Translations under genes and position numbers: made by a program
From: Negativicutes bacterium
GTDB lineage: Bacteria; Bacillota; Negativicutes; UBA1444
Direction of reading: 5' to 3'
Assembly (NCBI GenBank): GCA_963665275.2
Contig: CAXXIN010000013.1
Location: 283,703-347,702 of the forward strand
DNA length: 64,000 nt
In this document: positions 13,630 to 42,132 of the stretch, piece after piece
Position numbering within the stretch: position 1 is the stretch's first letter
Layout: each line of letters begins with the position of its first letter
The notes under the pieces: generated by a model
Database searches by the model: none
What the model was told of the DNA's origin: nothing
Seen by the model: the letters and a program-made list of their open reading frames with translations, nothing else

Positions 13630-13735
13630 GTCTCCCCTGCATTGAAATCCGCCGGAACGATTTTGGGTGTAAAGACTTTTTCGTCATCTTCATCCAAAAT
13701 CCTCTATGGTCGACGGATATCGAACCAAAATAAGC

Positions 13736-13772
13736 AAAGGCGGCGTTGACGTTTGGCATCAACACCGCCTTT
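13736..13772 (-). terminator. Terminator ending the nicotinate operon
   Basis: Minus-strand GGCGGUGUUGAUG/CGUCAACGCCGCC stem (mismatches resolve as G:U only on this strand) followed by UUUGCUU. Confidence 0.7.
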
Positions 13773-13800
13773 CCTATTCATTCAGGAATGGAATACAGAC

Positions 13801-15195
13801 TTATGCTTTGGGTGCGCAAGCATCCGGGTTCGTCGCACTGCAATCTTCCAGGTTCTTGCCTTTGGTCTCGGTCCCCAGAATCCCGACGGCCGCAGCCGCC
13901 AGAATAAAGCCAACCGCGACGACCGACAAGGTCATGTACAAGCCGATAAGCGGATACAGATAACCGACAACCGTCGGCGCCAGCACGCCGCCAATACGAC
14001 CCCAGGACATGGCGGTTCCCGTACCGGTTCCACGCACTTCCGTCGGGTAGTTCTCCGGTGTGTAAGCGTATACGACAGAGTATGCTCCAGCCAGGAACAG
14101 CACTGACAGCGATCCAAACGCCAGCATGATTTCCACCGGCAGTTTTTGCGACAGCGCCCAGCCATACATCACACTGGTAATGCCGGCCAGGGTCAGATAA
14201 ACCACGATAGGCATTTTCCGGCCGACTTTATCCGCCAGATATGATCCGAAAATTCCGCTGGGAATCCAAACCAAGTTCATGATCAATACATAGCCGATGG
14301 ACGCAACCATGGAATAACCCGAGTTTTTCAACAACGTCGGCAGCCAGGTGTTCAGGCCCCAATAGCCGAACATCAGGCAAAACCATAGAATCCAGAGCAT
14401 CATCGTGCGCCGGGAGTAGTTTGGTTTGAAGAGAACGGCCATTTTATTGCCGGTTTCGGCAAAGACTTTGGGTACAGGCACAGCCACAGGCAATGTTTTG
14501 CCTGTTTCGGCTTCAATGTCTCTTTCCAGTTGGCTTAAATGTTCTTCAGCTTCCGCCGGGCTTCCTTTTACCATGTACCAACGGGGAGATTCAGGAATCC
14601 CTTTACGCAGGAACCAGACCAACAGTGCCGGGAAAACTCCGGCAAAGAACGCACTCCGCCAGCCATATGTCGGCACCAGCAAGAGAGCAACAGCAGCAGC
14701 AGTCAAAACTCCGCCGCCCCAAAGTGCTTCCGTTAGGCCATTCAGGCGTCCACGATATTCACTGGGCATCATTTCACTGTTATAAGTAAACACAACAGGC
14801 TGTTCCGCTCCCAGCCCCAAGCCGGTGAGAAAGCGCAATACCAAGAGCATCTCATAACTATTTACAAAGCCGGTAAAGAATGTCGCAATAGAAAATGTCA
14901 GCAATGTCACTTTAAAAATCTTCAACCGACCAAATAAGTCGGCGAGGATTCCGCCCGACAGTGCTCCGCAGAACATCCCCAGGAACGAAATGCTGAAAGA
15001 AAGACCGATTTGAACAGGCGAAAGGCCGAGATCTTTTGCCAATGCCGGCATGACGAAACTCAGCAGCATGATATCGAATGCGTCAAATAGGTATCCCGCC
15101 GCCGTCAAGGAGTAGATCTTTTTGTGCACCTTGGAAAATGGCAATCGTTCCATTCGTCCAACCAGTTCTTCCATGGTCAATGTGTTTGTTGACAT
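13801..15195 (-). CDS. MFS transporter, NiaP/aromatic acid:H+ symporter-like (copy 1); candidate nicotinate importer
   Basis: GYLFDAFD, GILADLFGR, RFLTGLGLG, PESPRW, YTPENYPTEVRGTG; last gene of the nicotinate operon. Confidence 0.9.
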   Translation of the reverse strand: MSTNTLTMEELVGRMERLPFSKVHKKIYSLTAAGYLFDAFDIMLLSFVMPALAKDLGLSPVQIGLSFSISFLGMFCGALSGGILADLFGRLKIFKVTLLTFSIATFFTGFVNSYEMLLVLRFLTGLGLGAEQPVVFTYNSEMMPSEYRGRLNGLTEALWGGGVLTAAAVALLLVPTYGWRSAFFAGVFPALLVWFLRKGIPESPRWYMVKGSPAEAEEHLSQLERDIEAETGKTLPVAVPVPKVFAETGNKMAVLFKPNYSRRTMMLWILWFCLMFGYWGLNTWLPTLLKNSGYSMVASIGYVLIMNLVWIPSGIFGSYLADKVGRKMPIVVYLTLAGITSVMYGWALSQKLPVEIMLAFGSLSVLFLAGAYSVVYAYTPENYPTEVRGTGTGTAMSWGRIGGVLAPTVVGYLYPLIGLYMTLSVVAVGFILAAAAVGILGTETKGKNLEDCSATNPDACAPKA

Positions 15196-15341
15196 CCTAG
15201 ATAGCCTCCTTATTTACATTATGATGCAATGAGTCCTTTCAGCTGGTCCCTGTACCCCGTTCTGCTTTGCACGGATCACTCCTCTCAACGTCGTAGCAAT
15301 TGCGAAGGCGGTTTTACGACTATAGTGCTATATCTTGATGG

Positions 15342-16223
15342 CTAGAGAACTTGTTCCCAGCCGCCAAAAACTTGTCCCAGCGCGGAATCGACAGCACGGC
15401 GGATAATGGCGGGACCGGCCTGCTTTTTGTACACAGCCGAAGCGCGTTCCCCGAGCGTCGCACTGATCTCTTTTAAGGCCGCTTTGACGCAGTTGTCACG
15501 GTTGCTATGCGTCAGGCTGCAGTTCTGCCAGATGTTTTCCGCCGTTCTGACCCGAAACGGGTTTTTCGCCACGGAACCCACGGCAATCCGGCAGTCGGTG
15601 CAGGTCATGTCCGCTTCGTCGTAGCCAACGATAGCGGCCACGCTCACCCGTGAAATGGCCAGAGATTTTCTGCGGCCCAGTTTGACGAAGGCGCTCCCGG
15701 TCTTCGGCGCCAGCGCCTTGAATGAAATCCCTGCCAATACCTCGCCAGGGGCGATATCCGTCTTGCAGATACCGAGCAAGAACTCTTCGAGTCCCAGTTC
15801 TCTTTCACCCGCTTGGGAAACAAGACGCAGTCTGGCATCCAGCGCCATCAAGGCTGGTACCGAATCGGCGGCAGGCGAACCTTTGACAATGTTGCCCCCG
15901 ACAGTGCCGCGATTTCGGATCTGGGGCGATCCGACGGATTGTGCGGCCTGCGCCAGCACAAAGGCATTCTCGCGAATGATTTGCGACTCCACAATTTCGG
16001 TGAAGGTCGTGGCCGGTCCGAGGTGAATCGTGTCCCCCTCAAGTCGGACCCCCTTCATTTCAGAGAGTTTGGTAATATCCACGAGACATTCCGTCTGGTG
16101 TCCGGCGCGAATTTCCACCATCACGTCGGTCCCACCGGCTATGATCATGGCCCCGTCTTTCTTTTCGGCCAGAATGTCCAGCAGTTCAGGCATCGTCCTC
16201 GGTGCGTAATACAAGTAACTCAT
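15342..16223 (-). CDS. ndhF: Nicotinate dehydrogenase FAD subunit (XdhB/CoxM family)
   Basis: IIAGGTD, VGSPQIRNRGTVGGNI, FVKLGRRKSLAIS; AAGGAGG before ATG 16223; only FAD subunit gene in the cluster. Confidence 0.85.
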   Translation of the reverse strand: MSYLYYAPRTMPELLDILAEKKDGAMIIAGGTDVMVEIRAGHQTECLVDITKLSEMKGVRLEGDTIHLGPATTFTEIVESQIIRENAFVLAQAAQSVGSPQIRNRGTVGGNIVKGSPAADSVPALMALDARLRLVSQAGERELGLEEFLLGICKTDIAPGEVLAGISFKALAPKTGSAFVKLGRRKSLAISRVSVAAIVGYDEADMTCTDCRIAVGSVAKNPFRVRTAENIWQNCSLTHSNRDNCVKAALKEISATLGERASAVYKKQAGPAIIRRAVDSALGQVFGGWEQVL

Positions 16224-16242
16224 AAGCAGCCTCCTTATCGGC

Positions 16243-17115
16243 CTATTTGGAAGGCAGCAGGAATTTGTCTTCGATCTCGCGTACTGCCGGCAATCCGACC
16301 AGTTCATTGAACTGCTGGAACGGGATCATCTCGCCCATCATCGCCTGAGTTGTGCCAGTGGTCTTCAGTTCCTGCATGACGCGGGTCACTGCCTGCGCCG
16401 TAATATAGGTCGAGGATGTGGGGAAAATGACCAGAGCGTAGCCCAGTTCCTGCAGTTCCTGCGCAGTCATGAGCGGCGTGCGTCCCCCTTCGACCATGTT
16501 CGCCAACACCGGGATATTGAAGCTGGAAGTGATCAGTTTCATTTCTTCCAGGCTTTCCGGCGACTCAATGAATAGAACATCCGCTCCCGCTTCGGCAAAA
16601 GCCTTCCCACGGCGAAGCGCTTCTTCAATCCCCAGATTCGTCCGAGCATCGGTCCGGGCAATGATCACAAAATCGGGATCCTGTCGGGCTGAGACCGCCG
16701 CTTTGATTTTGCTGACCATTTCTTCCAGAGGCACTACTTGGCGACCGGTCATGTGACCGCATTTTTTCGGCGCCACTTGGTCTTCCAACTGAATGGCAGC
16801 TACTCCGGCTGCTTCATATTCCTGCACGGTACGCATTACGTTGATCACGTTGCCGAATCCGGTGTCGCCGTCGGCAATTACCGGGACATCGACCGCAGCT
16901 GCGAAATTGCGGGCCCGCATGACCATTTCGGTCATCGTCATCAGTCCGACGTCAGGGCCGCCCAGATGACTGGCCGCCTGCCCGTATCCCGTGAAATAGA
17001 CCGCATCGAAACCAGCTTTGGCGACAATTTTCGCCGACAGGGCATCATGAGCACCAGGAGCTACTAGTATTTGCGGCTGAGCGAGCAGCTCTCGCAATCT
17101 TGTTGTTTTTTTCAT
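16243..17115 (-). CDS. dml: 2,3-dimethylmalate lyase (isocitrate lyase/PEP mutase family)
   Basis: PGAHDALSA, ADGDTGFG, EDQVAPKKCGH, IIARTDA; context with mii/dmdAB. Confidence 0.9.
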   Translation of the reverse strand: MKKTTRLRELLAQPQILVAPGAHDALSAKIVAKAGFDAVYFTGYGQAASHLGGPDVGLMTMTEMVMRARNFAAAVDVPVIADGDTGFGNVINVMRTVQEYEAAGVAAIQLEDQVAPKKCGHMTGRQVVPLEEMVSKIKAAVSARQDPDFVIIARTDARTNLGIEEALRRGKAFAEAGADVLFIESPESLEEMKLITSSFNIPVLANMVEGGRTPLMTAQELQELGYALVIFPTSSTYITAQAVTRVMQELKTTGTTQAMMGEMIPFQQFNELVGLPAVREIEDKFLLPSK

Positions 17116-17133
17116 AGGTTCCACCTCTCTCGG

Positions 17134-18579
17134 CTACTTAACGCCGAAATGTTTTTTGGCAAATCGCAGGGCTGCTGTCGGATGATATTGCGCCAACACC
17201 CCGATCGCGTAAGTCAGATAATTTCCATCCACAATAATCCTGGCATGTTTCGGCAACAGCGATATTCCCGGCCGGTTCAGCGCTGCTGCAACAATCGCTT
17301 GGGCCTCCTCCTCGGAGGAATGGGCGAAGACTCCGCCCACAGCCAGTACCACTTCGACCTGCCGCAAATCCCGTCCGATCGGAGTTCCCGGGATCACGCC
17401 CATCACCGGATCGAAATGTTCGGCGATGTAGCCGGCATGACGTTTGAGCGCCACTTCGACCGCCACTTCCGCCATTACGCGGTCCAGCTTCACTTCTATT
17501 TCATTTTCTGCCAGATGCTCCGGGCTCGCTTCCAGCTGCGCGGCATAATCAACGACAGCCTTCTCCCCTGCCTCGCCTTCAAGTCCAGCCCGCAGGGCAA
17601 TCGCTTTTTCACCGACCGCTTCCACGATGCCCCGCGCGCTGACACGCAGGCCCAAATTCCCTTCGACCGTCCGATAAGCCGGCTGCTTCTCATTGGTAAG
17701 AACCAGCCCCTTTTCTTCGATCGACAGTTCTTCCAGGTGCGGCAGTACGGAGTGGATATCTGTCGTCGCACCGCCGAGATCGACCACTACCAGCCCGCCG
17801 ATCCCGTCTTCTTCCTTCGTGCCGCGTGCGATGAGCTCCGCTGCCATCAGGATGGCCCCTGGGGTGGGGACCACTTTTTTCACGCTCAATCGGTCCAGTA
17901 GTTTCGAAAGGCCCTTGGCTTTCGTGATCTGGTCGATGAAGTGTTCGTGGATTGCCTCACGCGCCGGTTTGACTTTCAATTCGTGAATCGTCGGCATGAC
18001 GTTGGGTACCCTGACTGTCTGAAATCCGGCCTCCCGCAGCAACCCGTCCACCCTCGGTTGGGCCGCCTGATTGCCTGCGACCACTACCGCCGCCTTCACT
18101 TTGCTATCAACGATGATTTTCGCATCCGCGATCAATGCATCCGTTTCACCGCCGTCGGTCCCGCCTGCGAGCAAAATGATATCCGGGCGGATCTCGCGCA
18201 GCATCTCCAGCTTCTGTTCGGGGTGATCGTCGTAGGACATCACCTCGAGCACGCGGGCGCCGGCGCTCATGGCAACTTCTTTGGCCGCTTTGGCCGTCAC
18301 TCTGGGCATATAGCCCATCGCCACCATGCGCAGGCCCCCTGCGGCGCTGGATGCCGCATAGGTACTGTCGGCAACCAATCTTTCTCTGCCGATGCCGGCA
18401 GCAATCGCCGTCGAAGCATTCGCGAGACCGATCTCAATGTCTTCGACGGTCGTCGGCGCCTGGGCTCTGCCCAGCCAGGACAGTTCCTGTCTGTTCATCT
18501 CGAACGCACTCGCTTTGGTAAAGGTGCTGCCCACGTCAAATACCAATAGGGTTTTCGGCTTTTCGTCCAATGTTTGCAT
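17134..18579 (-). CDS. MutL/GlmL-like ASKHA ATPase, putative reactivase/chaperone of the B12 mutase
   Basis: DVGSTFTK, SSAAGGLRM, LAGGTDGG, DLGGATTDIHS, RTVEGNLGLR. Confidence 0.88.
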   Translation of the reverse strand: MQTLDEKPKTLLVFDVGSTFTKASAFEMNRQELSWLGRAQAPTTVEDIEIGLANASTAIAAGIGRERLVADSTYAASSAAGGLRMVAMGYMPRVTAKAAKEVAMSAGARVLEVMSYDDHPEQKLEMLREIRPDIILLAGGTDGGETDALIADAKIIVDSKVKAAVVVAGNQAAQPRVDGLLREAGFQTVRVPNVMPTIHELKVKPAREAIHEHFIDQITKAKGLSKLLDRLSVKKVVPTPGAILMAAELIARGTKEEDGIGGLVVVDLGGATTDIHSVLPHLEELSIEEKGLVLTNEKQPAYRTVEGNLGLRVSARGIVEAVGEKAIALRAGLEGEAGEKAVVDYAAQLEASPEHLAENEIEVKLDRVMAEVAVEVALKRHAGYIAEHFDPVMGVIPGTPIGRDLRQVEVVLAVGGVFAHSSEEEAQAIVAAALNRPGISLLPKHARIIVDGNYLTYAIGVLAQYHPTAALRFAKKHFGVK

Positions 18580-18590
18580 GAAAACGTCCC

Positions 18591-19745
18591 CTACTTTTTC
18601 TCAGGGATCACATACACCGATCCGTCCATGATCCGCCGCGCCGTGCGGGAAATCGCGGCCCGCGTGATGGCCACTTTGCCGTCAGCAAGATCCGAAGCCA
18701 TTTCGATATCGATCACGCCTGCCGGATGTCCAATGCGCAACAATTTTTTCTCGCGCGGTTTGTTGATCTGTTCATACACCACCGTACCGGGGATCACCGC
18801 CGCAGAACCTGTGCACACCGTGCCGGTTCCCGCATACGTCTTGTGGATGACCTGCATGAACATCAGCCGGGAAACCACGTCGACGTCGCTGGCTTTGATG
18901 GGATTGCCTGTGGTGAAGTCGGTATAATCCTGGGGCGGACTGACGAAAGCGATCATCGGGAAAGCCGGTACAAGTTCCAGCGCCTCAGCCGGATCTTTGG
19001 CCATTCCCATAATCACCGCGGCAGCACCGCGGATGCTCTCGAGCGTCTTCAGCAGTTCGGGGTTGGAGTTGACCTGCTGCGGTGTTTCGATCCCGGTCAG
19101 GCCGAGATCTTTGGCCCGCACGAATACCATCGGATTGGCCACATCAACCAAGCTGGCTTCAATTTTGCCAAAGCCGGGGATTTCCAGAACATCGACCGGG
19201 TTTCCGGTCGGCAGCAGCTTCTTGGTTACAGCGCCAGTCGTATCCGAATAATCCAGCATGATCATCGCGCCGGTACCCGGAACTCCGTCGCACACGCAAT
19301 CCCCCAGAACCGCAGCTTTGCCGTCGACTGTCGGCACATCGGCGATAATGAGTTTTCCGGTGTTCGTGTTATGGATGCGTACGGTGGTGATGCCTTCCTG
19401 ACACCGCACCAGTCCTTCATCAATCGCGAAAGGTCCGACTGCGGAGGAAATGTTGCCGCAGTTGCCGCTGTAATCGATGTATGGTTTATTGATGCTGACC
19501 TGACCGAAGGTATAGTCGACATCGGCATCCGGGCGGGATGAAGGGCCGATGATGGCCAGTTTGCTTGTCAGAGGGTCGGCCCCGCCCAGCCCGTCGATCT
19601 GACGGACATCCGGGCTGCCGAATACTTTCAGGATCACTTTGTCGCGTGCAGCGTGATCGCGCGGCAGATCGTTTTCCATGAGAAACATTGCCTTACTCGT
19701 ACCGCCGCGCAGAATCGCGCAGCGAATTTTTTCCATTTGGGCCAT
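18591..19745 (-). CDS. mii: 3-methylitaconate isomerase (PrpF family)
   Basis: RGGTSKA, QIDGLGGADPLTSK, GNCGNI, HKTYAGTGTVC, RTARRIMDG; directly after mgm. Confidence 0.92.
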   Translation of the reverse strand: MAQMEKIRCAILRGGTSKAMFLMENDLPRDHAARDKVILKVFGSPDVRQIDGLGGADPLTSKLAIIGPSSRPDADVDYTFGQVSINKPYIDYSGNCGNISSAVGPFAIDEGLVRCQEGITTVRIHNTNTGKLIIADVPTVDGKAAVLGDCVCDGVPGTGAMIMLDYSDTTGAVTKKLLPTGNPVDVLEIPGFGKIEASLVDVANPMVFVRAKDLGLTGIETPQQVNSNPELLKTLESIRGAAAVIMGMAKDPAEALELVPAFPMIAFVSPPQDYTDFTTGNPIKASDVDVVSRLMFMQVIHKTYAGTGTVCTGSAAVIPGTVVYEQINKPREKKLLRIGHPAGVIDIEMASDLADGKVAITRAAISRTARRIMDGSVYVIPEKK

Positions 19746-19746
19746 C

Positions 19747-21588
19747 TTATTTCCCCTCCTCGACGTTCTTCTGAATCCACTCGATCACTTTTTCCGGCGG
19801 TGTGCCCGGGCCAAAGAACGCATCCACACCCAGGAACCCAGTCCCCTGGGTTTTGATTTTTTCTTCCATTGCTGCATGTTCTTCTTCCTTTTCCGCGGCG
19901 CGGCCCCCGGCAATGACCTTGATCTTGTCGCGCTGACCCAGTTGAGACAGACGGGCGCTGATACGGGGGAACAGGATCGTACCCATGCCGAGCAGATTCC
20001 CGGCGCCGATGACGTCCGCCTTGGCTTCAGCGGCAATTTCCGCAACGGTTTCCGGCAAATTCATCCCCCGCAGGAAGATGACTTCGTATCCGGCCTGCGA
20101 CATCGCTTCCTTGATGGTGTTGATCCCGACCACATGAGCGTCGGCGCCCACTGTGGCCAGCACAATCTTCGTCTTTTTGCTGACTGGTTTCGCCGAATCA
20201 ACATGTACATCTTCGGTCGTGAAGGAAACCTTTTCCTGCGGCACCTCAGCCGGTCCATAACCGACCACATACCGCTTGATTCCGTCTTTGCCGCGATGCG
20301 TCCGCACGCCGCGTTTCAGATCCCATCCACCGGCCTGCGGCGCATCCAGAACGCCTTTTTTGCCTGCCGAAACAATGTTTTCGACGAGGTCATCCAGCCC
20401 ATAGGACTGCCAGAAGGCCGGGTTGATCTCGCCGGGCGCCAGCTCTCGCCGGCCGAGCACCGAGCAGAGCACCGCCATGGCCTCGGTCAGAATTTCATTC
20501 TTTCGATAATCGATGGCCGGATCATTGATCGTCAAAGGCACAATGCTTTCAAATACGTTTTGCGACGCCCAGATGGCCTTGGCCATGGAAGCGCCGGTTG
20601 GAATGCCGACCGACTCCGCGGCTTTCGGGCGATAGAAATCCGCGCCACCGAGTTTCGCGCTCATCGCCATGCGGGCAAAATGCGCCGATTCCACTATCAG
20701 ATCAGGCGGCGGGTTTTGGAAGGTCTCAGGCACGACAATCAGCGATCCGCTCCACATGGTCTCCCGGAACGCCCGCATGGCGGCGATATCCGCGAGCAGA
20801 TTGATGCCGGCAACATTCATTTGTAACGCGCTGAGTTCGGGTGGCAATTTGGCATGTACTGCCAAACCTTCAGCCAACAGACACATGGCCAGAGCCATGC
20901 CGTCCGTGCCGCCGATGTTGTTCAGATGCTTATGCGATTCGATCTGAGCCGAGACTTTGTTTTCGGCGCAGATTTCCATCGTTTTAAAGCCATTTTTGAC
21001 TTTTGTCTTGTAGTCATGAATCCCGCGTCCACCAAAATGCACATGGATGACCGGGCCGATATCGGTGCCGTCAAAACCCGCGATCATGGCATTGATGACC
21101 GAAAGGTGAGGCGTGTCGCCGGTGGCGTTGATTCGCATGGGATGTTTGGCGCCGCCGCCCATGGCGACATATTCGCGTTCACCTGCCGGTGTGATGCCGC
21201 CTTTGCCTCGCGACTGCTCGATCAGCTCCGCTCCGTCCTTCGGGTCGATGTGACGGGTGGCTTCGGAGTGCACGAAGTGGAACAGGGTGATTCCCAGCTC
21301 TTCCGCCACCTTATACATCTCGATCGATTCTTTCATGGTCTCTTCTGCTGAGTTGCGTCCCAAGATCGGGTTCTGCACCGGTATCTTCGTACGCTTCGCC
21401 TGTTGGGACAGTTCCCAGATGCGGTGACCGCCGCGTTCGACGCCATGAACCATTCTCGGATATGGCGCGGGCAGGCCGTCCACATCGCCGTCCGGCGTTA
21501 CTTTTGGCATGGGCACGTTAAAGACCCGTTCATAGGCCTGAACTCGTTCATAATCGTCGACGATAATCTGCTTTGTGCGTTCCTGCAT
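19747..21588 (-). CDS. mgm: 2-methyleneglutarate mutase (adenosylcobalamin-dependent)
   Basis: 613 aa with C-terminal B12-binding domain ([11 protein letters not shown], DxHxxG); N-terminus MQERTKQII resembles E. barkeri Mgm as recalled; pathway context. Confidence 0.9.
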
Positions 21589-21592
21589 CTTT

Positions 21593-22102
21593 CTATATCT
21601 CCTTTGTTGCCAGCTGTCGGCGCACTTTGGCGATCAGACCGCCTGCCGCCAGGATGGCGATTACATTTTCTCCCGGTACGGTTCCCGTCAGGGTTTCCCC
21701 TGTCGGCAATTGAATTTGCGCGCTGCGGATATCCGCCGTGACAGACTCGCCATCTTTCACTTTGCCGACCAGGTCGGCCTGCAACACCGGCAGCCCGATA
21801 TTGATCGCATTACGGCGGAATATCCGCGCGAAGGATGTTGCGATGATCAGACCGACTCCGGCGTCCTTGAGCGCGAGCGGCGCCTGTTCGCGGCTTGAAC
21901 CGCAGCCGAAATTCGCTCCTGCGATGATAACATCCCCGGCTTTCACCTGCTTGGAAAAGTCGGCAATCTTGCTGCCGGCCATTGCATGATCTTTCAGCGC
22001 CTCACGCGGATAGACCATGGCATAGCCGGGTAAAATCTGGTCGGTGTCAATATTGTCTTCAAAATTCCAGACGCGGCCTGTGCATTTCAATTCATCAACC
22101 AT
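21593..22102 (-). CDS. dmdB: 2,3-dimethylmalate dehydratase small subunit (LeuD-like)
   Basis: [37 protein letters not shown]. Confidence 0.88.
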
Positions 22103-23318: not shown

Positions 23319-23330
23319 CGCTGTTTCCCC

Positions 23331-24743: not shown

Positions 24744-24779
24744 TGGTTTTCCCTCTCCCCCTGTTCGATTGGTTCTCCC

Positions 24780-25670: not shown

Positions 25671-25679
25671 AGTATCCTC

Positions 25680-26258: not shown

Positions 26259-26282
26259 GATAAGCCCTCCTCTAAATTTTTA

Positions 26283-27116: not shown

Positions 27117-27119
27117 GAG

Positions 27120-28622
27120 TTACTCGCCTTTCTTTAACGTCGAAAGGGGTTTGATGGATTCGATGTGGCCGCCAATTTCTTCATATTTCTGACGGGTCAT
27201 TGTATATTCCACCGGCGCCACCGTCGCGGGCGTCGGCACCCAAGTAAAGGCTTTGGGAGCTACTTTTTCAACATCCACCAGGAAGTTGATTCCTCCGCCA
27301 GGGAGAATATAGGTCTGCGCGCCGCCAATCGTCAGCTTCGCCTCGCCTGCATGCACTGCTCGTGAAAGCTTGATCGGATAGGTCGTCACACCGGCCCTGG
27401 CGCTGCCTCCGGTCCCGCCGACATAGACGGCCGAAACCCGAGCTTCCTCGCAATTATCAGAGATTAAATCGACAGCGGCCTGCACTTCTTTGGTCATCGG
27501 CAATTCAACGACACTGCCGTCAGCCTGCACTTCCAGCAACGCGCCTTTTTGGCCGGTGGTTTCGGTAACCAGAATTTTCATGCCCGCTTTGGCGATTTGC
27601 ATATCCACCGACTTGACGGCATCCAGCGGCTGTTCGATATGCGTGCCGCCCCAGCCATGCCCGTGTTCGCCAAAATAGCGCCCACGCGTACTTTTTCTGC
27701 CGTTGGGCACGACGCCGCTCCAAGTCATCCCGACTTCTTCCCCTGCTCGATGTTCGGACAAGAGTCCGATGACATGGTGATCGAGCACGATGGCTTCATC
27801 TACAACTTGGCACATGGTTCGTGCGAACATTCCAACGGTCGCGCTACCACAGCCGACGCGCATTTTCTTTTCCGCCACCCCGTCGATAAGGGGCGCATAG
27901 CCAACCTGCAGTTCCAACTTGCTGCCTTTTTCGACTTGCAGCGTTACCCGCTCCTCGTTCGCCAGCTCGACAATGGTTCGCGCAGCGGCAAATCCGTTCT
28001 TGCCGCTCAGAATATTGGCGCCACCGATGTAGATCATCTTCGATCCATATTCTTCGGTGTCCACCATGCCGACCAGTGCGCCGTCGCGGAATATCTTCGC
28101 GCCTTCTTCGCCGATATGATGATTGGCGTCGATCTTGACTTTGATACCGCTGTAACTAAGCGGCGCTTCGGTTACGACAGTCACCACATCGATGCCGTCG
28201 ATGGTTTCGCCGACGATATGCGGGGCCGGACGGCAACAGGGATATGCCGTCCCGGCGCCGACAGCAGTGATCAGCGGCGTATCCGGAATCGTTCGGTCCG
28301 GAGCCGTAGCCCGGGTGTTCTCCAGTACAAGTTCCCGGTTGCGCACCAATTTGCCGTTGATATTGCTATACCGCTTGCATGCGCCCTCGAATCCGGCTTT
28401 GATTTCACACTGGACCGGGCATGAACGGCAGGAAACCGCCCCGGCGGCGACTTCCGGCTCGCGGGAGATCGCCTGGAATGGGCATACCCTGACGCAAACG
28501 CCGCAACTGACGCAATTCGCCTGCACCACGGCCAGTTTGTCAATCACTTTGATGGCGCCGGCCGGGCAGCTTTTCACGCACAGAGTACAGGCTTTACATG
28601 ATTCTTTTTTGACAACGATCAT
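27120..28622 (-). CDS. hnr: 6-hydroxynicotinate reductase
   Basis: N-terminal 2x[4Fe-4S] plus CxxCPxxC..C motif, VTVVTEAPLSYSG, MRVGCGSAT, GGTGGSARAG, PGGGINF; 500 aa. Confidence 0.92.
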   Translation of the reverse strand: MIVVKKESCKACTLCVKSCPAGAIKVIDKLAVVQANCVSCGVCVRVCPFQAISREPEVAAGAVSCRSCPVQCEIKAGFEGACKRYSNINGKLVRNRELVLENTRATAPDRTIPDTPLITAVGAGTAYPCCRPAPHIVGETIDGIDVVTVVTEAPLSYSGIKVKIDANHHIGEEGAKIFRDGALVGMVDTEEYGSKMIYIGGANILSGKNGFAAARTIVELANEERVTLQVEKGSKLELQVGYAPLIDGVAEKKMRVGCGSATVGMFARTMCQVVDEAIVLDHHVIGLLSEHRAGEEVGMTWSGVVPNGRKSTRGRYFGEHGHGWGGTHIEQPLDAVKSVDMQIAKAGMKILVTETTGQKGALLEVQADGSVVELPMTKEVQAAVDLISDNCEEARVSAVYVGGTGGSARAGVTTYPIKLSRAVHAGEAKLTIGGAQTYILPGGGINFLVDVEKVAPKAFTWVPTPATVAPVEYTMTRQKYEEIGGHIESIKPLSTLKKGE

Positions 28623-28644
28623 AGATTCTTAACCTCCCGCTCGC

Positions 28645-29817
28645 CTAAGCGATCGTAACTTTTCCCACTGCAGGCGGAGTGTTGCGGCTCTTGTTCACCT
28701 TGACCACTCCATCGACAAGCACCAACGCGACACCAGGGATGTCGCCGGCCTCGATCGCTTCGAGCGCGTTCTTGCCGACCGAACCCATTGGCGTATCCAT
28801 GATGACAATATCCGCCTCTTTACCCGGAGCGATCACACCCGTATTCAGACCATATACGCGAGCCGTGTTTCCAGTCGCCATGGCCACCGCCACCGCCGCC
28901 GGAACCTCCGACATGCTGGCAATCTGGCAGATATTCCGCAGAATTCCGAGGGGAATCACGCCGGTGCCCGAAGGTGCATCATTACCGAAAATAAGCCGGC
29001 TCAATTGTTTTTTGGCAGTTGCCTGACGGGCCACATAATCAGCCACTTTCGGATTCCCGCATTGTACGATCTCCAGTGCGATCTGCGTCTCATCTATCAG
29101 CCGGTCGACTTCCTTCAGGGAAACCGCCGTCGGTCCGCCGTTGATATGGGATACCACGTCCGGGTCGGTTTTGATCACGTCGTCCGCCGAAACGGTCGAG
29201 CTGCCCGGAATCGAAGTTCCGCCTGTATGCATCATGACTTTCATGTTGTGTTTTTTCGCCCAGGCTACCATCGGCGCCGCATCTTCTGGTTTTTTAATGG
29301 ATCCGAGACCCACTTCCCCGACGACTGTGACTCCAGCTGCCGCCATTTCGGCAAAATCAGCTTCGGTCAGGCCTTTTTCCAAAATGACCGAACCGGCATG
29401 AACTTTCACTCCGCCCGGTTTCAAAAGCGCAAACGATTTGTGCGCCAAGATGGCCAACGCCTTCACCCCTGCCGGATCTGTCGGGCGACCCGGCGTATGG
29501 CATTCACCGGCGGAAATCATGGAAGTGACACCACCATGAATGGAACTGTCAATGAAATCCGACATTTTTTGACGCGGCGTGTAGTCGCCGATCACCGGAT
29601 GAACGTGTGAATCAATCAGACCGGGGGTCACTGTCATGCCGCCCGCATCAATGGTTTTAAATTCTACCGAATCCTTTTTGAGAGAATCCACTAACGCCAT
29701 AGTGCCGACTGCGTCAATCTTACCGTCTTTTATGACGATAACGTCCCCTGCGATGATGGGTTGTTCCACCAGCCCTGAAACGATAGTTCCGATGTTTGTG
29801 ATAACTGTTACTGCCAT
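28645..29817 (-). CDS. ena: Enamidase (amidohydrolase superfamily)
   Basis: NIGTIVSG, PGLIDSHVH, ISAGE.H.PGRP, MHTGGTSIPGSS, SHINGGPTA, GNDAPSGTGVIPLGILR. Confidence 0.93.
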   Translation of the reverse strand: MAVTVITNIGTIVSGLVEQPIIAGDVIVIKDGKIDAVGTMALVDSLKKDSVEFKTIDAGGMTVTPGLIDSHVHPVIGDYTPRQKMSDFIDSSIHGGVTSMISAGECHTPGRPTDPAGVKALAILAHKSFALLKPGGVKVHAGSVILEKGLTEADFAEMAAAGVTVVGEVGLGSIKKPEDAAPMVAWAKKHNMKVMMHTGGTSIPGSSTVSADDVIKTDPDVVSHINGGPTAVSLKEVDRLIDETQIALEIVQCGNPKVADYVARQATAKKQLSRLIFGNDAPSGTGVIPLGILRNICQIASMSEVPAAVAVAMATGNTARVYGLNTGVIAPGKEADIVIMDTPMGSVGKNALEAIEAGDIPGVALVLVDGVVKVNKSRNTPPAVGKVTIA

Positions 29818-29841
29818 ACTGATCCACTCTCCATTCTCACT

Positions 29842-30837
29842 TTAGTTTTTTGCCGCAGCAGAATCCTTATTGGCAAGCGCTTGCAGCACTCGCTCCGGCG
29901 TAATCGGCAGGGAATAGATCCTCACGCCGATCGCGTCATACACAGCGTTGGCGATGGCCGCCGCCGTAGGTATCAAAGCGGGCTCGCCGACTCCTTTTGC
30001 GCCAAAAGGCCCGGTGGGCTCAGGGTCCTCAACAATGAACGAATATATTTCAGGCGTATCAAGAGACATGGGCAACAGATAACCATCGAAATTCGGATTG
30101 GAAATCCGGCCCTTGGACACGTTGATTTCTTCGAGCAAAGCATACCCGCTGCCCATGACTGCACCGCCCTCGATCTGCGCTTCAACCAATTTGGGATTGA
30201 TAGCCCTGCCGACATCATGGGAAGCCACGATTCGCAGCACTTCGACCTTGCCTGTTTCCGTATCCACTTCCACTTCCGCCACCTGGGTGGCAAAAGCGTA
30301 CGTTCCATAGGGAGATCCCTCGCCAGTAGAGGCATCCAATCCGGTTGTCGCCGGATTGAACCAGCCGTGTCCGAGCGTGAGCTTGCCCTTCATACGGCAA
30401 CTCCCGAGTACTTCCTTCACCGTCATGGTCCCTGGTTTGTCGTCGACCACCACCACGCCATCGGCAAAATCAACTTCCCCGTTGGTTTTCAGCATTTCCC
30501 TGGCCTCGGCAATCGCTACCTGCTTGGCTTCTTTTGCTGCCAGGCGAGCCGCGTTGCCTGAAATGTAAGTCTGTCGGCTGGCGCTGGTCGCACCGCCTTC
30601 CGGCGTAATCATCGTGTCCGCCGAAGTGACCATCACATTCTCCGCTCCGATGCCCAGTTCTTCTGCCACAATCTGGGCGAGAACGGTATCAGACCCTTGT
30701 CCGATGTCGGCGCACCCAGCCAACAAATTGGCGGTCCCGTCATCCAGCCATTCCACGAAAGCCGCCGCCGGGTTCGGCAATCCGGTGTTGCCGACGCCAT
30801 ACCACATGCAGCCGATTCCTGTGCCACGTTTCTTCAT
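29842..30837 (-). CDS. ndhM: Nicotinate dehydrogenase medium molybdopterin subunit
   Basis: MKKRGTGIGCMWYGVGNTGLPNPAAAFVE, DIGQGS, TSASRQTY, GPFGAKGVGEP; split L/M architecture. Confidence 0.93.
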   Translation of the reverse strand: MKKRGTGIGCMWYGVGNTGLPNPAAAFVEWLDDGTANLLAGCADIGQGSDTVLAQIVAEELGIGAENVMVTSADTMITPEGGATSASRQTYISGNAARLAAKEAKQVAIAEAREMLKTNGEVDFADGVVVVDDKPGTMTVKEVLGSCRMKGKLTLGHGWFNPATTGLDASTGEGSPYGTYAFATQVAEVEVDTETGKVEVLRIVASHDVGRAINPKLVEAQIEGGAVMGSGYALLEEINVSKGRISNPNFDGYLLPMSLDTPEIYSFIVEDPEPTGPFGAKGVGEPALIPTAAAIANAVYDAIGVRIYSLPITPERVLQALANKDSAAAKN

Positions 30838-32109
30838 TTACAATACCCCCGTGCGGAACATTTTTTGAGCTTCCGCGCACGCCTGTTCCAGCGTCATTCC
30901 AATCCCCACACTATGCTCCAGGACTTGGCCGGTCGCGGTTACGCTCCCCGGACGCAAAACATTCAGCCGCCGGATTTCCAATGGTGACATGCCCAATTCT
31001 TCGGCCAATATATTCATCTGCGTCTCATGTGCGAACGCCATCTGAGGCACGCCGAATCCGCGCATGGCTCCTGCCTGCGGATTGTTCGTATAGACGGCAT
31101 AGGCATCAACAAAGACATTTGGTACTTCATAGGGACCGGTCGCATGAACTGCCGCCCGGGTCAGCACCGCCGGCCCGTAGGATGCGTAAGCGCCGCTATC
31201 GCCAACGATGTTCGCTTTCACCGCCAGCAATTTCCCCTCTGCGCTAACCCCGGTCTTATAATCAATCACATAGGGATGCCGCTTGGCTGAGGCGATCATG
31301 GATTCTTCCCTTTGCCAGACCATCTTTACCGGACGGCCTGTCTTATAAGCCGCCAGCGCCAGGTAACATTGCACCGAAATATCCAGCTTGCCGCCGAATC
31401 CGCCACCGGTTACCGCCTGCACAATCCGAACCTGGTTGACACCCAGCCCCAGAGTCCGCGCGACTTCTTTGCGGTCAAAGTGCACATTCTGGGTGGAAAC
31501 CCAAACCGTCACCATTTTTCCGTCATACTCGGCCAACCCGGCTTCCGGCTCTATGTAGGCATGCTCTGCGCATTGGGTGAAATATTGCCGTTCGACGATG
31601 AACTTCGAAGCGGCGAATCCCGCCTCCACATCGCCTTTACGCAACTTGCGCAACGTCAGTATATTGGAGGACCCGTGGATTTTAACCGCACCGGCTGCCA
31701 TGGCCGATTGGGTATCAAAATACGCCGGCAATTCCCGTAGCGTCACCTTCAGGTTTTTTCCCGCCGCGATCGCTATTTCTTCGGTTTCAGCCACGACCAG
31801 CGCCAACGCGTCGCCGTGACGCCGAACTTTTTCCCCTGCGAGTACCGGTTCGTCCTTTAAAATAATACCAACGCCATTGGGTCCCGGAATGTCTTTCGCG
31901 GTAAATACCGCCACTACCCCTGGAACTGCCGCCACTGCCGACACATCGATGTTTTCGATCACGGCATGCGCCAATCCGCTTTCATTACGAATCACCTTGC
32001 AGAACAGCATCCCCGGGCGCTTCATATCAGCGGCGAATAGCGCCTGCCCCGTCACTTTCGCGATCGCGTCATGCTTCAAAATCGAGCTGCCAACGCCGGT
32101 ATGCGTCAT
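30838..32109 (-). CDS. ndhL: Nicotinate dehydrogenase large molybdopterin subunit
   Basis: AKVTG, EHAYIEPE, TGGGFGGKLD, SAKRHP, GAMRGFGVPQ; ATG 32109 overlaps ndhS stop. Confidence 0.92.
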   Translation of the reverse strand: MTHTGVGSSILKHDAIAKVTGQALFAADMKRPGMLFCKVIRNESGLAHAVIENIDVSAVAAVPGVVAVFTAKDIPGPNGVGIILKDEPVLAGEKVRRHGDALALVVAETEEIAIAAGKNLKVTLRELPAYFDTQSAMAAGAVKIHGSSNILTLRKLRKGDVEAGFAASKFIVERQYFTQCAEHAYIEPEAGLAEYDGKMVTVWVSTQNVHFDRKEVARTLGLGVNQVRIVQAVTGGGFGGKLDISVQCYLALAAYKTGRPVKMVWQREESMIASAKRHPYVIDYKTGVSAEGKLLAVKANIVGDSGAYASYGPAVLTRAAVHATGPYEVPNVFVDAYAVYTNNPQAGAMRGFGVPQMAFAHETQMNILAEELGMSPLEIRRLNVLRPGSVTATGQVLEHSVGIGMTLEQACAEAQKMFRTGVL

Positions 32110-32582
32110 ACGACTTCGCCTCCCTGCTTCGCGACAGCTTCCACAGCATCGACAATTTTGGAATAGCCGGTGCAACGGCAGGCGTTGCCGGAAATGGCCA
32201 CCCGGATCTCTTCCCGCGACGGGGTCGGGTTTTTATCCAATAAAGCCTTCGCTGACAGCAGCATCCCCGGTGTGCAAAAACCGCATTGCACGGCGCCATG
32301 ATCTATAAAAGCCCGTTGCAGCACATGAAGTTTCTCTCCCTCAGACAAACCCTCAACCGTTAAAATGTCCGAACCGTCGATTGAAGCAGCCGGCACGATG
32401 CACGATGCTACAGTCCGTCCATCCAGAATGACTGTGCAGGCGCCACATTCACCGATGCCACAGCCGCGTTTCGTGCCTGTCAAGCCGAGGTCGTCCCGCA
32501 GAAAATCCACCAACAGAAGCTCTGGCCGAACAGCGGTTTTAACTTCCTTCCCATTGATCATACAGGTTATTTCGACATTCAA
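32106..32582 (-). CDS. ndhS: Nicotinate dehydrogenase 2x[2Fe-2S] subunit
   Basis: GCGIGECGACTV..C, QCGFCTPG, GNACRCTGY. Confidence 0.92.
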   Translation of the reverse strand: MNVEITCMINGKEVKTAVRPELLLVDFLRDDLGLTGTKRGCGIGECGACTVILDGRTVASCIVPAASIDGSDILTVEGLSEGEKLHVLQRAFIDHGAVQCGFCTPGMLLSAKALLDKNPTPSREEIRVAISGNACRCTGYSKIVDAVEAVAKQGGEVV

Positions 32583-32609
32583 TGCTCACACCCCCATTTT
32601 ATATACCAA

Positions 32610-32626
32610 TGCAAGAGCCGTGCCAA
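32610..32626 (-). promoter_or_regulatory. Sigma-54 promoter of the nicotinate operon
   Basis: TTGGCACGGCTCTTGCA, near-perfect -24/-12 consensus, about 28 nt before ndhS. Confidence 0.92.
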
Positions 32627-32709
32627 AGTTCCGATTAAACAAAAGAAGCCCGCAAAATCAACTTGCCGGGCTCCATTGCCATTCTCATCGTTCTTTAATT
32701 GCACGAATT

Positions 32710-32800
32710 CATTGCATTATTGAAACAGTCAGTTACTTTTCTGCGATCTACGTCATCCTTTTCATTGCAAAAAAGAAACGCGCATTTCAATTTTGCAATA
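32710..32800. promoter_or_regulatory. Three candidate enhancer sites CATT(G/T)CA-N4-(T/A)G(A/C)AA
   Basis: 32710 CATTGCATTATTGAAACA; 32763 CATTGCAAAAAAGAAACG; 32783 CATTTCAATTTTGCAATA. Confidence 0.65.
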
Positions 32801-34385
32801 TGCCGTGTTCGACCATCTTTCGCCATAGAGTAGTTGTACTAATCCCTAATTTTTTCGCTGCCAACCCTCGATTTTCCTTCTCTTCCTGCAGAATTCTTAC
32901 AATCACAGACTTTTCCGTTTCCTTCAGAATAGAGTCCAAATTCAGTTCAGCCCTGCGACCCCCACCCGAAACCTTCTCGAACTGCGAAGGCAGATGACGT
33001 TTCTGCAGCAACCGTTCATGCGGCTCGACAATGTTCAGTGCACTTTCAATGCAGTTTTGCAATTCCCGCACGTTGCCCGGCCACTCGTGCCGAGAGAAAA
33101 CATCGAGAACATCAGTCGCCACATCCTCAACGATCCGACCCAGAACACGATTATATTTTTCGAGGAAACAGCGGGCCAATTGATGAATGTCGTCATACCG
33201 CTCCCGCAGGGCCGGCACTTTTAGCTCCACCACGTTGAGGCGATAGAAAAGGTCTTCCCGGAATTTTTTTTCTTCGACAAGCAGGCGCAAATTACGATTC
33301 GTCGATGAAATGATCCGAATGTTGACACGAATCGGCTTGCTGCTGCCCAAGCGGGTCACTTCCTGCTCCTGCAACACTCGCAGCAAGCGGGCCTGGAGGT
33401 CCCATTCCATCTCACTGATCTCATCCAAAAAAACCGTGCCCCCATTGGCTGATTCAAAGATTCCCGCATTGCCGCCTTTTTTTGCTCCGGTAAAGGAGCC
33501 TTCCACATACCCGAACAGTGTTCCTTCGATTAGGCTTGGAGGCACCGCGCCGCAATTAATGGCAATAAACGGTTTGTCGCAGCGGGGTGAGGCGTTGTGA
33601 ATCGCCTGCGCGAACAATTCCTTCCCGGTGCCGGTCTCCCCGAAAATCAAGACTGACGAAATGCCTTGCGAAACGTTGCGGGCCACCGCCTTGCAACGCT
33701 GAATGCTTTCGCTGACCCCAACAATATCGTCGAAATTATAGCGCGCATACTGAAACTTTTTGACTTCTTCAATCAGTTTATGTTTCTGCGAAACCATCAT
33801 TTCATTATTGAAACCCAAGCCGTATTGTTCTGTAATGGGAATGCGTACAGCCATGGCCCCTGGGACAGACATGGATTTCCCCACTACCGGTCGCTGCGTC
33901 TGCATGGCCTCCAAGGCCGCCTTGCTGACCTTGCCGATATATTCACCTTTTTGCACGCCAAAGGAATCGACACTCTGGAGCCTGCGCCCTTCCTGATCGA
34001 ACAGTACCGCTTCGCCGCCCGCCACACGAGCAATAATCGGCAATGCTTGCGATAACGAATCCCACAGCTTCCCTTCACGCTCGATCTTTTCCGTATTGGA
34101 TGCACTCAGGACATATTCGCCGATTGGCAACGCCCATGCTTCGGAGTTCGGCACAAAAGCCGAATACCCGAACGCTGGAGCGTTTTTTTCACTGGCGTCC
34201 CGCGCTAAATCGTACACCACTCCATGGTATTCCGCCAGTTCGTTGCCATGCGAATCAACCGTCCGCATGCGCTTTCCCGCTCTATCCGTCACGCTGGCAT
34301 ATCCGCCCGATATTCGCGCAATCAATGGCAACGCCTTGAAAAGTTGTTCCAACAATGTTCCGTTGCGAGAGTTTTCCGTCGCCAT
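32787..34385 (-). CDS. Sigma-54-dependent activator with tandemly duplicated N-terminal sensor domain; probable nicotinate operon regulator
   Basis: GETGTGKE, GSFTGA, FLDEI, WPGNVREL, Fis-type HTH; AGGAGG before ATG 34385. Confidence 0.93.
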   Translation of the reverse strand: MATENSRNGTLLEQLFKALPLIARISGGYASVTDRAGKRMRTVDSHGNELAEYHGVVYDLARDASEKNAPAFGYSAFVPNSEAWALPIGEYVLSASNTEKIEREGKLWDSLSQALPIIARVAGGEAVLFDQEGRRLQSVDSFGVQKGEYIGKVSKAALEAMQTQRPVVGKSMSVPGAMAVRIPITEQYGLGFNNEMMVSQKHKLIEEVKKFQYARYNFDDIVGVSESIQRCKAVARNVSQGISSVLIFGETGTGKELFAQAIHNASPRCDKPFIAINCGAVPPSLIEGTLFGYVEGSFTGAKKGGNAGIFESANGGTVFLDEISEMEWDLQARLLRVLQEQEVTRLGSSKPIRVNIRIISSTNRNLRLLVEEKKFREDLFYRLNVVELKVPALRERYDDIHQLARCFLEKYNRVLGRIVEDVATDVLDVFSRHEWPGNVRELQNCIESALNIVEPHERLLQKRHLPSQFEKVSGGGRRAELNLDSILKETEKSVIVRILQEEKENRGLAAKKLGISTTTLWRKMVEHGILQN

Positions 34386-34472
34386 TTTGCCCTCCTGTAG
34401 GTTGCCAACCATCTGAAATGGCTAGGCTTATAGAATCATTATAGCAAAATCCCTCATCCTACTCTATAACAA

Positions 34473-34490
34473 CATTTCAATATTGAAATG
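34473..34490. promoter_or_regulatory. Perfect palindrome matching the enhancer consensus; candidate autoregulatory operator
   Basis: CATTTCAATATTGAAATG upstream of an extended -10 (TGCTATAAT, about 34438-34446) of the activator gene. Confidence 0.6.
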
Positions 34491-42122: not shown

Positions 42123-42132
42123 ATATTTTTCG

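Follow-up and report, generated by a model that had tools for sequence, protein, structure and literature searches.

The stretch of DNA analyzed here (64,000 nt, hereafter the window; positions 283,703 to 347,702 of contig CAXXIN010000013.1, assembly GCA_963665275.2, from a Negativicutes bacterium) carries a gene cluster predicted to serve the anaerobic fermentation of nicotinate. Based on the open reading frame (ORF) list and family scans of the whole 64-kb window, 17 co-oriented genes were located on the minus strand between positions 32582 and 13801, in the order ndhS-ndhL-ndhM-ena-hnr-UPF0280/ApbE-like-AA_synth-hgd-hmd-dmdA-dmdB-mgm-mii-glmL-like-dml-ndhF-MFS (Table 1; MFS, major facilitator superfamily). 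The first-pass annotation of this DNA, which had described 17 co-oriented, mostly tightly coupled genes in this order without frameshifts, was thus borne out. With refined start codons, the intergenic distances ranged from -8 to +36 nt, the exception being 146 nt ahead of the MFS gene; the ndhL ATG overlapped the ndhS stop codon as ATGA, ndhM started immediately 3' of the ndhL stop, and the ndhF ATG lay 19 nt downstream of dml. All 17 reading frames were unbroken, and tblastn against 18 related loci gave a per-protein coverage of 96-100% in the best-matched relatives.

The hairpin that had been designated as the terminator of the operon was indeed ranked the strongest among 25 terminator-like sites in 13500-33400, a total that is not above the 21.1 expected. 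No internal terminator was detected on the coding strand between the promoter and the terminal hairpin in the scan of this region, including the 146-nt spacer before the MFS gene. A weaker hairpin at about 32672-32647, 3' of the activator gene, was recognized by eye only and was not listed by the terminator scan, and an Rfam scan of 11000-40000 identified no RNA family. The range originally given for the locus, 13736..34490, also takes in the adjacent activator gene.

Table 1. Features of the predicted nicotinate fermentation locus and its neighborhood (window coordinates)
Feature	Position	Strand	Basis or remark
Sigma-54 -24/-12 promoter TGGCACGGCTCTTGCA	32625-32610	-	27 nt before ndhS start, behind activator gene
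ndhS, 2x[2Fe-2S] subunit of nicotinate dehydrogenase	32582-32106	-	Fer2, Fer2_2
ndhL, large molybdopterin subunit	32109-30838	-	N-terminal half of the normally single Mo subunit
ndhM, medium molybdopterin subunit	30837-29842	-	C-terminal half of the Mo subunit
ena, enamidase	29817-28645	-	2vun match
hnr, 6-hydroxynicotinate reductase	28622-27120	-	Fe-S motifs, named orthologues
UPF0280/DUF375, ApbE-like fold, proposed flavin transferase for Hnr	27116-26283	-	Fold and synteny with hnr
AA_synth (PF06684/DUF1185), conserved pathway accessory	26258-25680	-	Pfam 255 bits
hgd, 2-(hydroxymethyl)glutarate dehydrogenase	25670-24780	-	3cky match
hmd, predicted serine-dehydratase-like 2-(hydroxymethyl)glutarate dehydratase	24743-23331	-	SDH_alpha
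dmdA, aconitase-family large subunit, predicted dimethylmalate dehydratase	23318-22095	-	NF001614
dmdB, predicted dimethylmalate dehydratase small subunit	22102-21593	-	TIGR02087
mgm, single-chain B12-dependent 2-methyleneglutarate mutase	21588-19747	-	B12-binding domain, named relatives
mii, 3-methylitaconate isomerase	19745-18591	-	3g7k match
glmL/mutL-like accessory, presumed mutase chaperone or reactivase	18579-17134	-	Pfam MutL
dml, predicted 2,3-dimethylmalate lyase (isocitrate lyase/phosphoenolpyruvate (PEP) mutase family)	17124-16243	-	PEP_mutase
ndhF, flavin adenine dinucleotide (FAD) subunit of nicotinate dehydrogenase	16223-15342	-	3hrd_C match
MFS transporter, aromatic acid:H+ symporter type, presumed nicotinate uptake	15195-13801	-	TIGR00895
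Intrinsic terminator hairpin, T-rich tail	13772-13736	-	16 pairs, 8 G-C
Sigma-54 enhancer-binding activator	34412-32787	-	Tandem PAS-like sensor (residues 1-228), AAA+, HTH_8
Exact palindrome TTTCAATATTGAAA, candidate activator-binding site	34475-34488	.	Upstream of activator gene
Two one-mismatch palindrome copies	32712-32725, 32785-32798	.	About 90-170 nt upstream of ndhS promoter
Class I S-adenosylmethionine (SAM) methyltransferase	35256-34567	-	Family scan
Soluble protein, methyl-accepting chemotaxis protein (MCP) signalling domain only, 279 aa	36106-35267	-	Family scan
Second sigma-54-like promoter TGGCATAATTCTTGCA	36169-36154	-	Behind strong hairpin
Second MFS transporter	37648-36248	-	37-41% identity to transporters inside other genera's clusters

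To assign the gene products, each was compared with profile families and with proteins of solved structure. Six proteins (NdhL, NdhM, NdhF, enamidase, Hgd, and Mii) gave their top scores against solved enzymes of the nicotinate pathway, and NdhS was a close second; the entries concerned (3hrd, 2vun, 3cky, and 3g7k) presumably derive from Eubacterium barkeri. NdhL and NdhM scored 417 bits against 3hrd_A and 350 bits against 3hrd_B, with the next matches at 204 and 173 bits, respectively, and NdhF scored 147 bits against 3hrd_C (next, 117). The 168 bits of NdhS against 3hrd_D were second to the 170 bits of another small subunit, as expected for a conserved Fe-S subunit. The enamidase matched 2vun over residues 1-384 with 556 bits (next, 30), Hgd matched 3cky with 324 bits (next, 237 for a tartronate semialdehyde reductase), and Mii matched 3g7k with 493 bits versus 289 bits for PrpF-type isomerases. 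Nicotinate dehydrogenase was encoded by four separate genes, the molybdopterin protein being divided into NdhL and NdhM; passages found in a review (PMC10331938) likewise give four subunits, NdhS/F/M/L, for the enzyme of E. barkeri.

Hnr was found to possess two CxxCxxCxxxCP motifs (C9/12/15/19 and C37/40/43/47) together with C65/68/72/82, and these 12 cysteines were invariant in all 22 sequences compared. Alhapel and co-workers reportedly described Hnr in 2006 as carrying two [4Fe-4S] clusters and one [2Fe-2S] cluster, with which the predicted set of cysteine ligands is consistent. Moreover, orthologues at 72-76% identity bear the name 6-hydroxynicotinate reductase in Sporomusa. As for the lower pathway, DmdA scored 425 bits against NF001614 (large subunit of aconitase/isopropylmalate isomerase; cut-off 385) and DmdB 166 bits against TIGR02087, the 'LeuD/DmdB family' (cut-off 109), while Dml matched PEP_mutase with 192 bits. 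The position of hmd between hgd and dmdA or mgm was kept in all 18 related loci. The glmL-like product matched Pfam MutL with 456 bits and the GlmL family TIGR01319 with 319 bits, above the cut-off, and its gene followed mii (mgm in one locus) throughout the 18 loci. The MFS transporter scored 297 bits against TIGR00895, below the cut-off of 418, and its orthologues (77-85% identity) terminate the clusters of two sampled genomes, G095 and G128. In Sporomusa acidovorans, orthologues were named enamidase, 2-(hydroxymethyl)glutarate dehydrogenase, and 3-methylitaconate isomerase, as well as 2,3-dimethylmalate dehydratase small subunit and 2,3-dimethylmalate lyase.

The predicted mutase Mgm comprises 613 residues, with a B12-binding domain at 474-571 and the sequence DAHVVG (DxHxxG) at residue 483. 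Solved B12 proteins matched its last ~140 residues alone, with scores of at most 46 bits, and the first ~470 residues had no match among solved proteins. Since similarity to solved proteins was confined to this C-terminal domain, the candidate explanation that Mgm is a glutamate mutase, or a methylmalonyl-CoA mutase, in disguise was rejected; the first-pass annotation had named a closer relationship to glutamate mutase as one example of how its assignment might fail. In several genomes, full-length relatives (69-73% identity) bear the name 2-methyleneglutarate mutase, and together with synteny these annotators' names suggest orthology to the E. barkeri protein.

On the basis of the observed gene content and intactness, the similarity of seven proteins to solved enzymes, the cofactor motifs, the promoter element described below, and the conserved arrangement, we conclude that the locus very probably represents a functional, inducible operon for anaerobic nicotinate fermentation of the E. 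barkeri type, from which substrate, flux, induction, and growth are inferred. In the proposed mechanism, nicotinate would be taken up via the MFS symporter and hydroxylated to 6-hydroxynicotinate by the Mo/Se/FAD/Fe-S enzyme NdhFSLM, and the Fe-S flavoprotein Hnr would reduce 6-hydroxynicotinate to 1,4,5,6-tetrahydro-6-oxonicotinate, whose ring opening and nitrogen removal by enamidase would give 2-formylglutarate. Hgd would then reduce 2-formylglutarate to 2-(hydroxymethyl)glutarate, which Hmd would dehydrate to 2-methyleneglutarate. The adenosylcobalamin enzyme Mgm, presumably kept active by the GlmL-like protein, would yield 3-methylitaconate by rearrangement of 2-methyleneglutarate; isomerization to dimethylmaleate by Mii, hydration to 2,3-dimethylmalate by DmdAB, and cleavage by Dml would finally furnish propionate and pyruvate. 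The organism itself is accordingly predicted, from its sequence, to ferment niacin, as had been proposed; propionate, acetate, CO2, and ammonium would be the products expected of an E. barkeri-type pathway.

Alhapel and co-workers are also said to have described, in 2006, the nicotinate fermentation gene cluster of E. barkeri. The present locus resembles that cluster in encoding predicted counterparts of all nine enzymes, with 13 structural genes (ndhF/S/L/M, hnr, ena, hgd, hmd, mgm, mii, dmdA/B, and dml), and in the same split of the molybdopterin subunit, and differs from it in that the host is a diderm Negativicute. Set beside E. barkeri, it is further characterized by the sigma-54 promoter, by the PAS-sensor activator, and by the position of ndhF far from ndhSLM at the operon end. 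With the Clostridium glutamate mutase system GlmS/GlmE/GlmL, the predicted mutase step shares an adenosylcobalamin carbon-skeleton mutase, a DxHxxG B12 domain, and a GlmL/MutL-type accessory protein, whereas Mgm is a single 613-residue chain with 2-methyleneglutarate rather than glutamate as its predicted substrate, and the accessory protein scores 415 against the GlmL equivalog, below the cut-off of 475.

The promoter assigned to the operon, TGGCACGGCTCTTGCA, was the sole exact match to TGGCAC-N5-TTGCW within the 64 kb, which agreed with the consensus sigma-54 promoter that had been claimed. The identical 16-mer was present ahead of ndhS in the related loci L020, L021, and L031, variant -24/-12 elements preceded the first cluster gene in L022, L026, and L027, and such elements were spotted by eye in L025, L027, L028, and L032. 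The activator gene behind which the promoter lies encodes a protein matching Pfam Sigma54_activat (221 bits), AAA_lid_14, and HTH_8, with GSFTGA at residue 305, and the genome contains rpoN (427 bits, above the cut-off); hence the -24 GG/-12 GC spacing, rpoN, an adjacent AAA+ activator, and a GAFTGA-type loop, by which a sigma-54 operon is recognized, were all found. Residues 1-228 of the activator were revealed to be an internal duplication. This N-terminal domain was conserved at 55-86% beside 11 other Negativicute clusters and at 37% beside one more. An AlphaFold2 (AF2) model of the sensor domain (predicted local distance difference test (pLDDT) 87.4) displayed two PAS-like modules, and Foldseek retrieved tandem PAS/dCache sensors with E-values of 2.5e-6 to 1e-4; the template modeling (TM) scores of only 0.23-0.34 are expected when two domains are arranged differently. 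A search of the ESM Atlas with the sensor domain yielded no hit that reached 0.9. In the Neomoorella cluster, a sigma-54 activator gene with a different sensor lies 1.8 kb upstream. Transcription from the sigma-54 promoter would require the adjacent activator, for whose tandem PAS-like sensor nicotinate or 6-hydroxynicotinate is the presumed ligand. Across the genome, 46 sigma-54-like sites were counted, so sigma-54 seems to be widely used in this organism; in the window, a third such site, TGGCATTATTCTTGCA, occurs at 9003-8988 on the minus strand.

The palindrome TTTCA-N4-TGAAA, allowing at most one mismatch, occurred at eight sites in the window versus 2.8 expected, a count reached by one of 100 shuffled sequences. 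Exact copies were found in the regulatory intergenic regions of 11 of 62 related loci, and just 10 exact copies exist in the 3.97 Mb of the genome. The form with a 6-nt spacer was discarded: it gave four matches versus 3.0 expected, none of them in regulatory regions, and the 4-nt spacer was thus taken as the right form. A genome-wide inspection of up to 400 nt upstream of the 46 sigma-54-like sites detected no exact palindrome, and the proposal of a binding site at the ndhS promoter therefore rests on the two one-mismatch copies and on the related loci. We propose the palindrome as a candidate binding site of the activator.

Two accessory genes stand between hnr and hgd. The product of the first, a UPF0280 protein, matched Pfam ApbE (PF02424) with 24.0 bits, below the cut-off of 25.6 and over profile positions 111-209 only, and its best NCBIfam match was the uncharacterised PRK04334/UPF0280 (208.6 bits, under the cut-off of 290). 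With its AF2 model (pLDDT 93.4), Foldseek placed DVU1097 (DUF375, 2o34) first at an E-value of 1e-10, followed by ApbE, Ftp, and FmnB with a probability of 1.00, E-values of 1e-5 to 1e-3, and TM scores of about 0.5. The gene directly follows hnr in all 16 hnr-holding related loci (15 orthologues and one pair of 40% paralogues), and one orthologue is already annotated as 'FAD:protein FMN transferase' (FMN, flavin mononucleotide). Hnr contains a segment, MR(V/I)GCGSAT, that was invariant among aligned relatives, and E. barkeri Hnr reportedly carries a covalent flavin. ApbE substrates are flavinylated within a Ser/Thr motif, canonically SGAT. Because of the ApbE-like fold, the invariable neighborhood with hnr, the GCGSAT motif, and the reported flavin, we tentatively propose, with somewhat less than even confidence, that the UPF0280 protein could be a dedicated cytoplasmic flavin transferase of the ApbE type installing the covalent flavin of Hnr at T262 or C258 of GCGSAT. 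It resembles the ApbE/Ftp/FmnB transferases in its fold and in the partial Pfam match, but falls under the Pfam cut-off and is nearest to the uncharacterised DVU1097, and the motif of Hnr is GSAT, not SGAT as in their substrates. A literature search, in which subscription journals were thinly covered, found no report linking ApbE with 6-hydroxynicotinate reductase. The second accessory protein, AA_synth, scored 274 bits against 2qtp and was encoded in 17 of the 18 related loci; the passages found of a structural paper on the AA_synth/DUF1185 family (PMC2954203) contain no mention of nicotinate.

The assembly (3.97 Mb in 20 contigs, 92.6% complete) was also inspected for the cofactors that the pathway would demand. 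A selD gene with one in-frame TGA (G000:C14:37616-38536) is consistent with a selenocysteine-containing SelD, and yqeB, a marker of selenium-dependent Mo hydroxylases, was present. In addition, the genome encodes a PduO-type adenosyltransferase and has seven cobalamin riboswitches, behind some of which lie genes for a BtuB-like TonB-dependent receptor, TonB and TolQ homologues, and the ATPase of an energy-coupling factor (ECF)-type transporter, and behind some also those for CobN-type chelatases, cbiK, cbiL, cbiMQO, and cobT. The TonB-dependent receptor is consistent with an outer membrane. Separately, a methylmalonyl-CoA mutase with MeaB was observed in the genome (G000; C17, C3, and C5 regions examined), its region on C17 consisting of several short ORFs that could be frameshifts or assembly errors.

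As for the distribution of the system, 27 of the 401 genomes sampled from the GTDB class of the host encoded full-length Mgm orthologues (69-96% identity), representing nine of 110 genera, and 32 of the 401 encoded Hnr. The co-occurrence survey that had been suggested thus identified both proteins in 26 of the class genomes, that is, in 26 of the 27 with Mgm; in one of these 26, G041, the Hnr match was a 40% paralogue only, and one further genome had Mgm without Hnr. Six class genomes (G004, G040, G056, G063, G085, and G119) had Hnr at 66-70% identity and no Mgm match at E<=1e-50; in these, the upper pathway may feed a different lower route. For the Neomoorella phylum, an Mgm match was present in 14 of 401 genomes (13 full length and one fragment), and at least 607 Mgm relatives at E<=1e-20 were obtained among 8000 candidates scored. 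The 18 related loci (16 from Negativicutes, one each from Neomoorella and Moorella) share the cluster in largely the same order, together with the UPF0280, AA_synth, and glmL-like genes as its three accessories.

Relatives of Mgm and Hnr carry pathway names in Sporomusa, Pelotomaculum, Thermanaeromonas, and others, and the annotated clusters of Sporomusa, Anaeroselena, Desulfosporosinus, Desulfitobacterium, Pelotomaculum, Thermanaeromonas, Moorella, and Neomoorella have a like gene set in a largely like order with the same accessory genes. The Negativicutes relatives also have the activator and the -24/-12 promoters in common with the window, from which the relatives' clusters differ in sequence (55-96% identity by gene and genome). 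The first-pass annotation had placed the host probably among the Negativicutes, which agreed with the nearest contigs being labeled 'uncultured Veillonellaceae bacterium'; it had further considered that a single-operon, sigma-54-controlled version in a diderm Firmicute would be a new instance. This claim could not be upheld, because the operon is widespread in the lineage and already annotated by name, as in Sporomusa records, and because the activator and promoter are common to the relatives; a prior description of the operon in this lineage, which the first-pass annotation had itself named as lowering the novelty, thus exists in the form of genomes and database names. No paper describing the pathway in Negativicutes or Sporomusa was found, subscription journals being thinly covered, and a 2026 preprint, in the passages found, still cites E. 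barkeri alone for nicotinate fermentation. The locus is, then, one more example of a common, already name-annotated kind and not a discovery.

In public sequencing data, nearly all sampled words of the stretch were present in five runs (share 1.00 in four of them, 0.90 in the fifth), and contigs of one near-complete run spanned 13700-33000 without differences. A wastewater metagenome gave 293 contigs on the stretch, 51 of them at 99% identity or above. Wastewater and freshwater metagenomes other than X6 had shares of 0.23-0.43, which were not used for habitat.

Comparison among the related clusters indicated a mosaic history. The identity to G095 amounted to 83-92% over ndhS-AA_synth and 85-92% over dml, ndhF, and the transporter, and dropped to 55-72% exactly across hgd-glmL. 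In unrooted trees, all of which exclude L026 (the divergent copy of G041), IQ-TREE grouped the Ena and Hnr of the window with those of G036, G058, G095, and G128 (support 100/99 and 97/98), and its Mgm with those of G036, G058, and G109 (100/99), G095 and G128 forming a separate clade (100/100). FastTree likewise joined the window to G109 for Hmd, with G095/G128 elsewhere, and to G095 and G128 for Dml. Given this drop in identity and the conflict between trees, the sequences indicate that the central hgd-glmL block (25670-17134) has a different history from the flanks ndhS-AA_synth and dml-ndhF-MFS; and since the relationships of the clusters cut across families, horizontal transfer is suggested. 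The nearest kin of the window, L020 and L021 of G036 and G058 (83-96% identity), differ in that glmL is directly followed by ndhF, with no dml within the operon; a 70%-identical Dml homologue was observed on another contig. The cluster L022 (G109:C58) consists only of activator-hmd-dmdAB-mgm-mii-glmL-dml, and no match to Hnr was found in the 99%-complete genome G109, whose stand-alone mutase branch may serve another substrate.

The genes upstream of the activator gene may also be related to the system. The second sigma-54-like promoter precedes the genes for the MCP-like protein and the methyltransferase (Table 1), and in G095 and G128, too, both of these genes stand next to the activator gene and the cluster; the former alone lies beside the cluster in G103, and the latter occurs also in the G164 and G109 loci. 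Chemotaxis or signaling tied to nicotinate is one possibility for this unit. Because the second MFS transporter gene lies just upstream of the regulatory unit and its product resembles the transporters within other genera's clusters (37-41% identity), the functional locus may extend to ~37.7 kb. Further upstream of this transporter, at 38052-42230 on the minus strand, two further genes were observed, encoding a 680-aa dCache-MCP chemoreceptor and a 644-aa diguanylate cyclase of GAF-GAF-GGDEF architecture.

Several observations weighed against the assignment of the locus to nicotinate fermentation. The first-pass annotation had assigned all enzyme families to the E. barkeri route and had called for a comparison of each protein with the E. 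barkeri set; this was accomplished through solved structures for seven of the 13 (six best matches, NdhS second), and the motifs of Hnr and Mgm lent further support, while Hmd, DmdA/B, and Dml were placed at the family level. For the remainder of that set, namely Mgm, Hnr, Hmd, DmdA/B, and Dml, we know of no solved structure, and their predicted identities rest on family membership, synteny, and annotators' names. In particular, the SDH_alpha match of Hmd was weak (29.3 bits versus a cut-off of 26.4), and the best solved match of Dml was petal death protein with 254 bits, whereas the fungal 2,3-dimethylmalate lyase of solved structure, 3fa3, ranked third with 198 bits, behind a second match of 228 bits. 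Sigma-54 sites with at most one mismatch numbered three in the window versus 2.6 expected, and 48 of 100 shuffles reached three; as this count is at chance level, it is the position of the promoter and its conservation in relatives that speak for it. Two RNA-labelled (metatranscriptome) runs yielded short contigs with 90-99% identity over parts of the cluster, which are not evidence of transcription. Finally, the 92.6%-complete assembly yielded no match for cobQ, cobS, or cbiD, which means either a missing contig or dependence on imported corrinoid; this gap is the main caveat to niacin fermentation by the organism. An organism with intact genes but no adenosylcobalamin synthesis of its own, whose mutase branch would run only on corrinoid from community members, fits this gap as well as the uptake genes behind the riboswitches and the PduO-type adenosyltransferase. 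We nevertheless consider it rather unlikely, as the genome does have cbiK, cbiL, cbiMQO, cobT, and genes for CobN-type chelatases, and as a single absent contig could carry the missing cob genes, which tend to lie together; a dependence on imported B12 would, moreover, leave the function of the operon unchanged.

The substrate itself could be questioned as well, since its specificity is unreadable from sequence. The operon might be directed at a related pyridine carboxylate (6-hydroxynicotinate provided by neighbors, deamidated nicotinamide, or a substituted nicotinate, for example) and might serve mainly nitrogen or vitamin scavenging rather than energy-yielding fermentation. The second MFS transporter suggests that more than one substrate may be imported, and the six genomes with Hnr and without an Mgm match suggest that other downstream routes can be joined to the upper half. 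However, the scores of NdhL and NdhM against the solved nicotinate dehydrogenase were roughly double those against any other Mo hydroxylase, a single unit encodes all nine predicted enzymes of the nicotinate route, and the cluster shows no sign of an extra substituent-removing step, so that we regard such a role as highly improbable. A third view divides the cluster into two separable modules, an upper one leading from nicotinate to 2-formylglutarate and a lower one, containing the mutase, that would process C6 branched dicarboxylates and also serve other substrates. It draws on the lower-module genes with an activator in G109, on the contrast between the Ena/Hnr/Dml and the Mgm/Hmd trees, and on the drop in identity to G095, but in the window both modules share one promoter-to-terminator unit without an internal coding-strand terminator. 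We hold this division to be possible, though on the doubtful side; it is compatible with nicotinate fermentation as the function of the locus and does not replace it.

As a single locus, the operon is ordinary, and its value lies in comparative details to be taken as hypotheses: the flavin-transferase link, the sensor with its candidate site, and the modular exchange. The comparison of loci gives leads on how Hnr acquires its covalent flavin, on the role of DUF1185, and on a PAS-sensor sigma-54 switch with a candidate palindrome. If true, the flavin-transferase reading would give the UPF0280 family a function and explain the acquisition of the Hnr cofactor, and the equally conserved DUF1185 protein would then count as another pathway component not described so far. 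Nicotinate fermentation, still cited from one organism, thus appears as a widespread, horizontally shuffled trait of anaerobic Firmicutes, including the diderm Negativicutes, a finding of relevance to the turnover of vitamin B3 and to B12-dependent cross-feeding among anaerobes living in communities.

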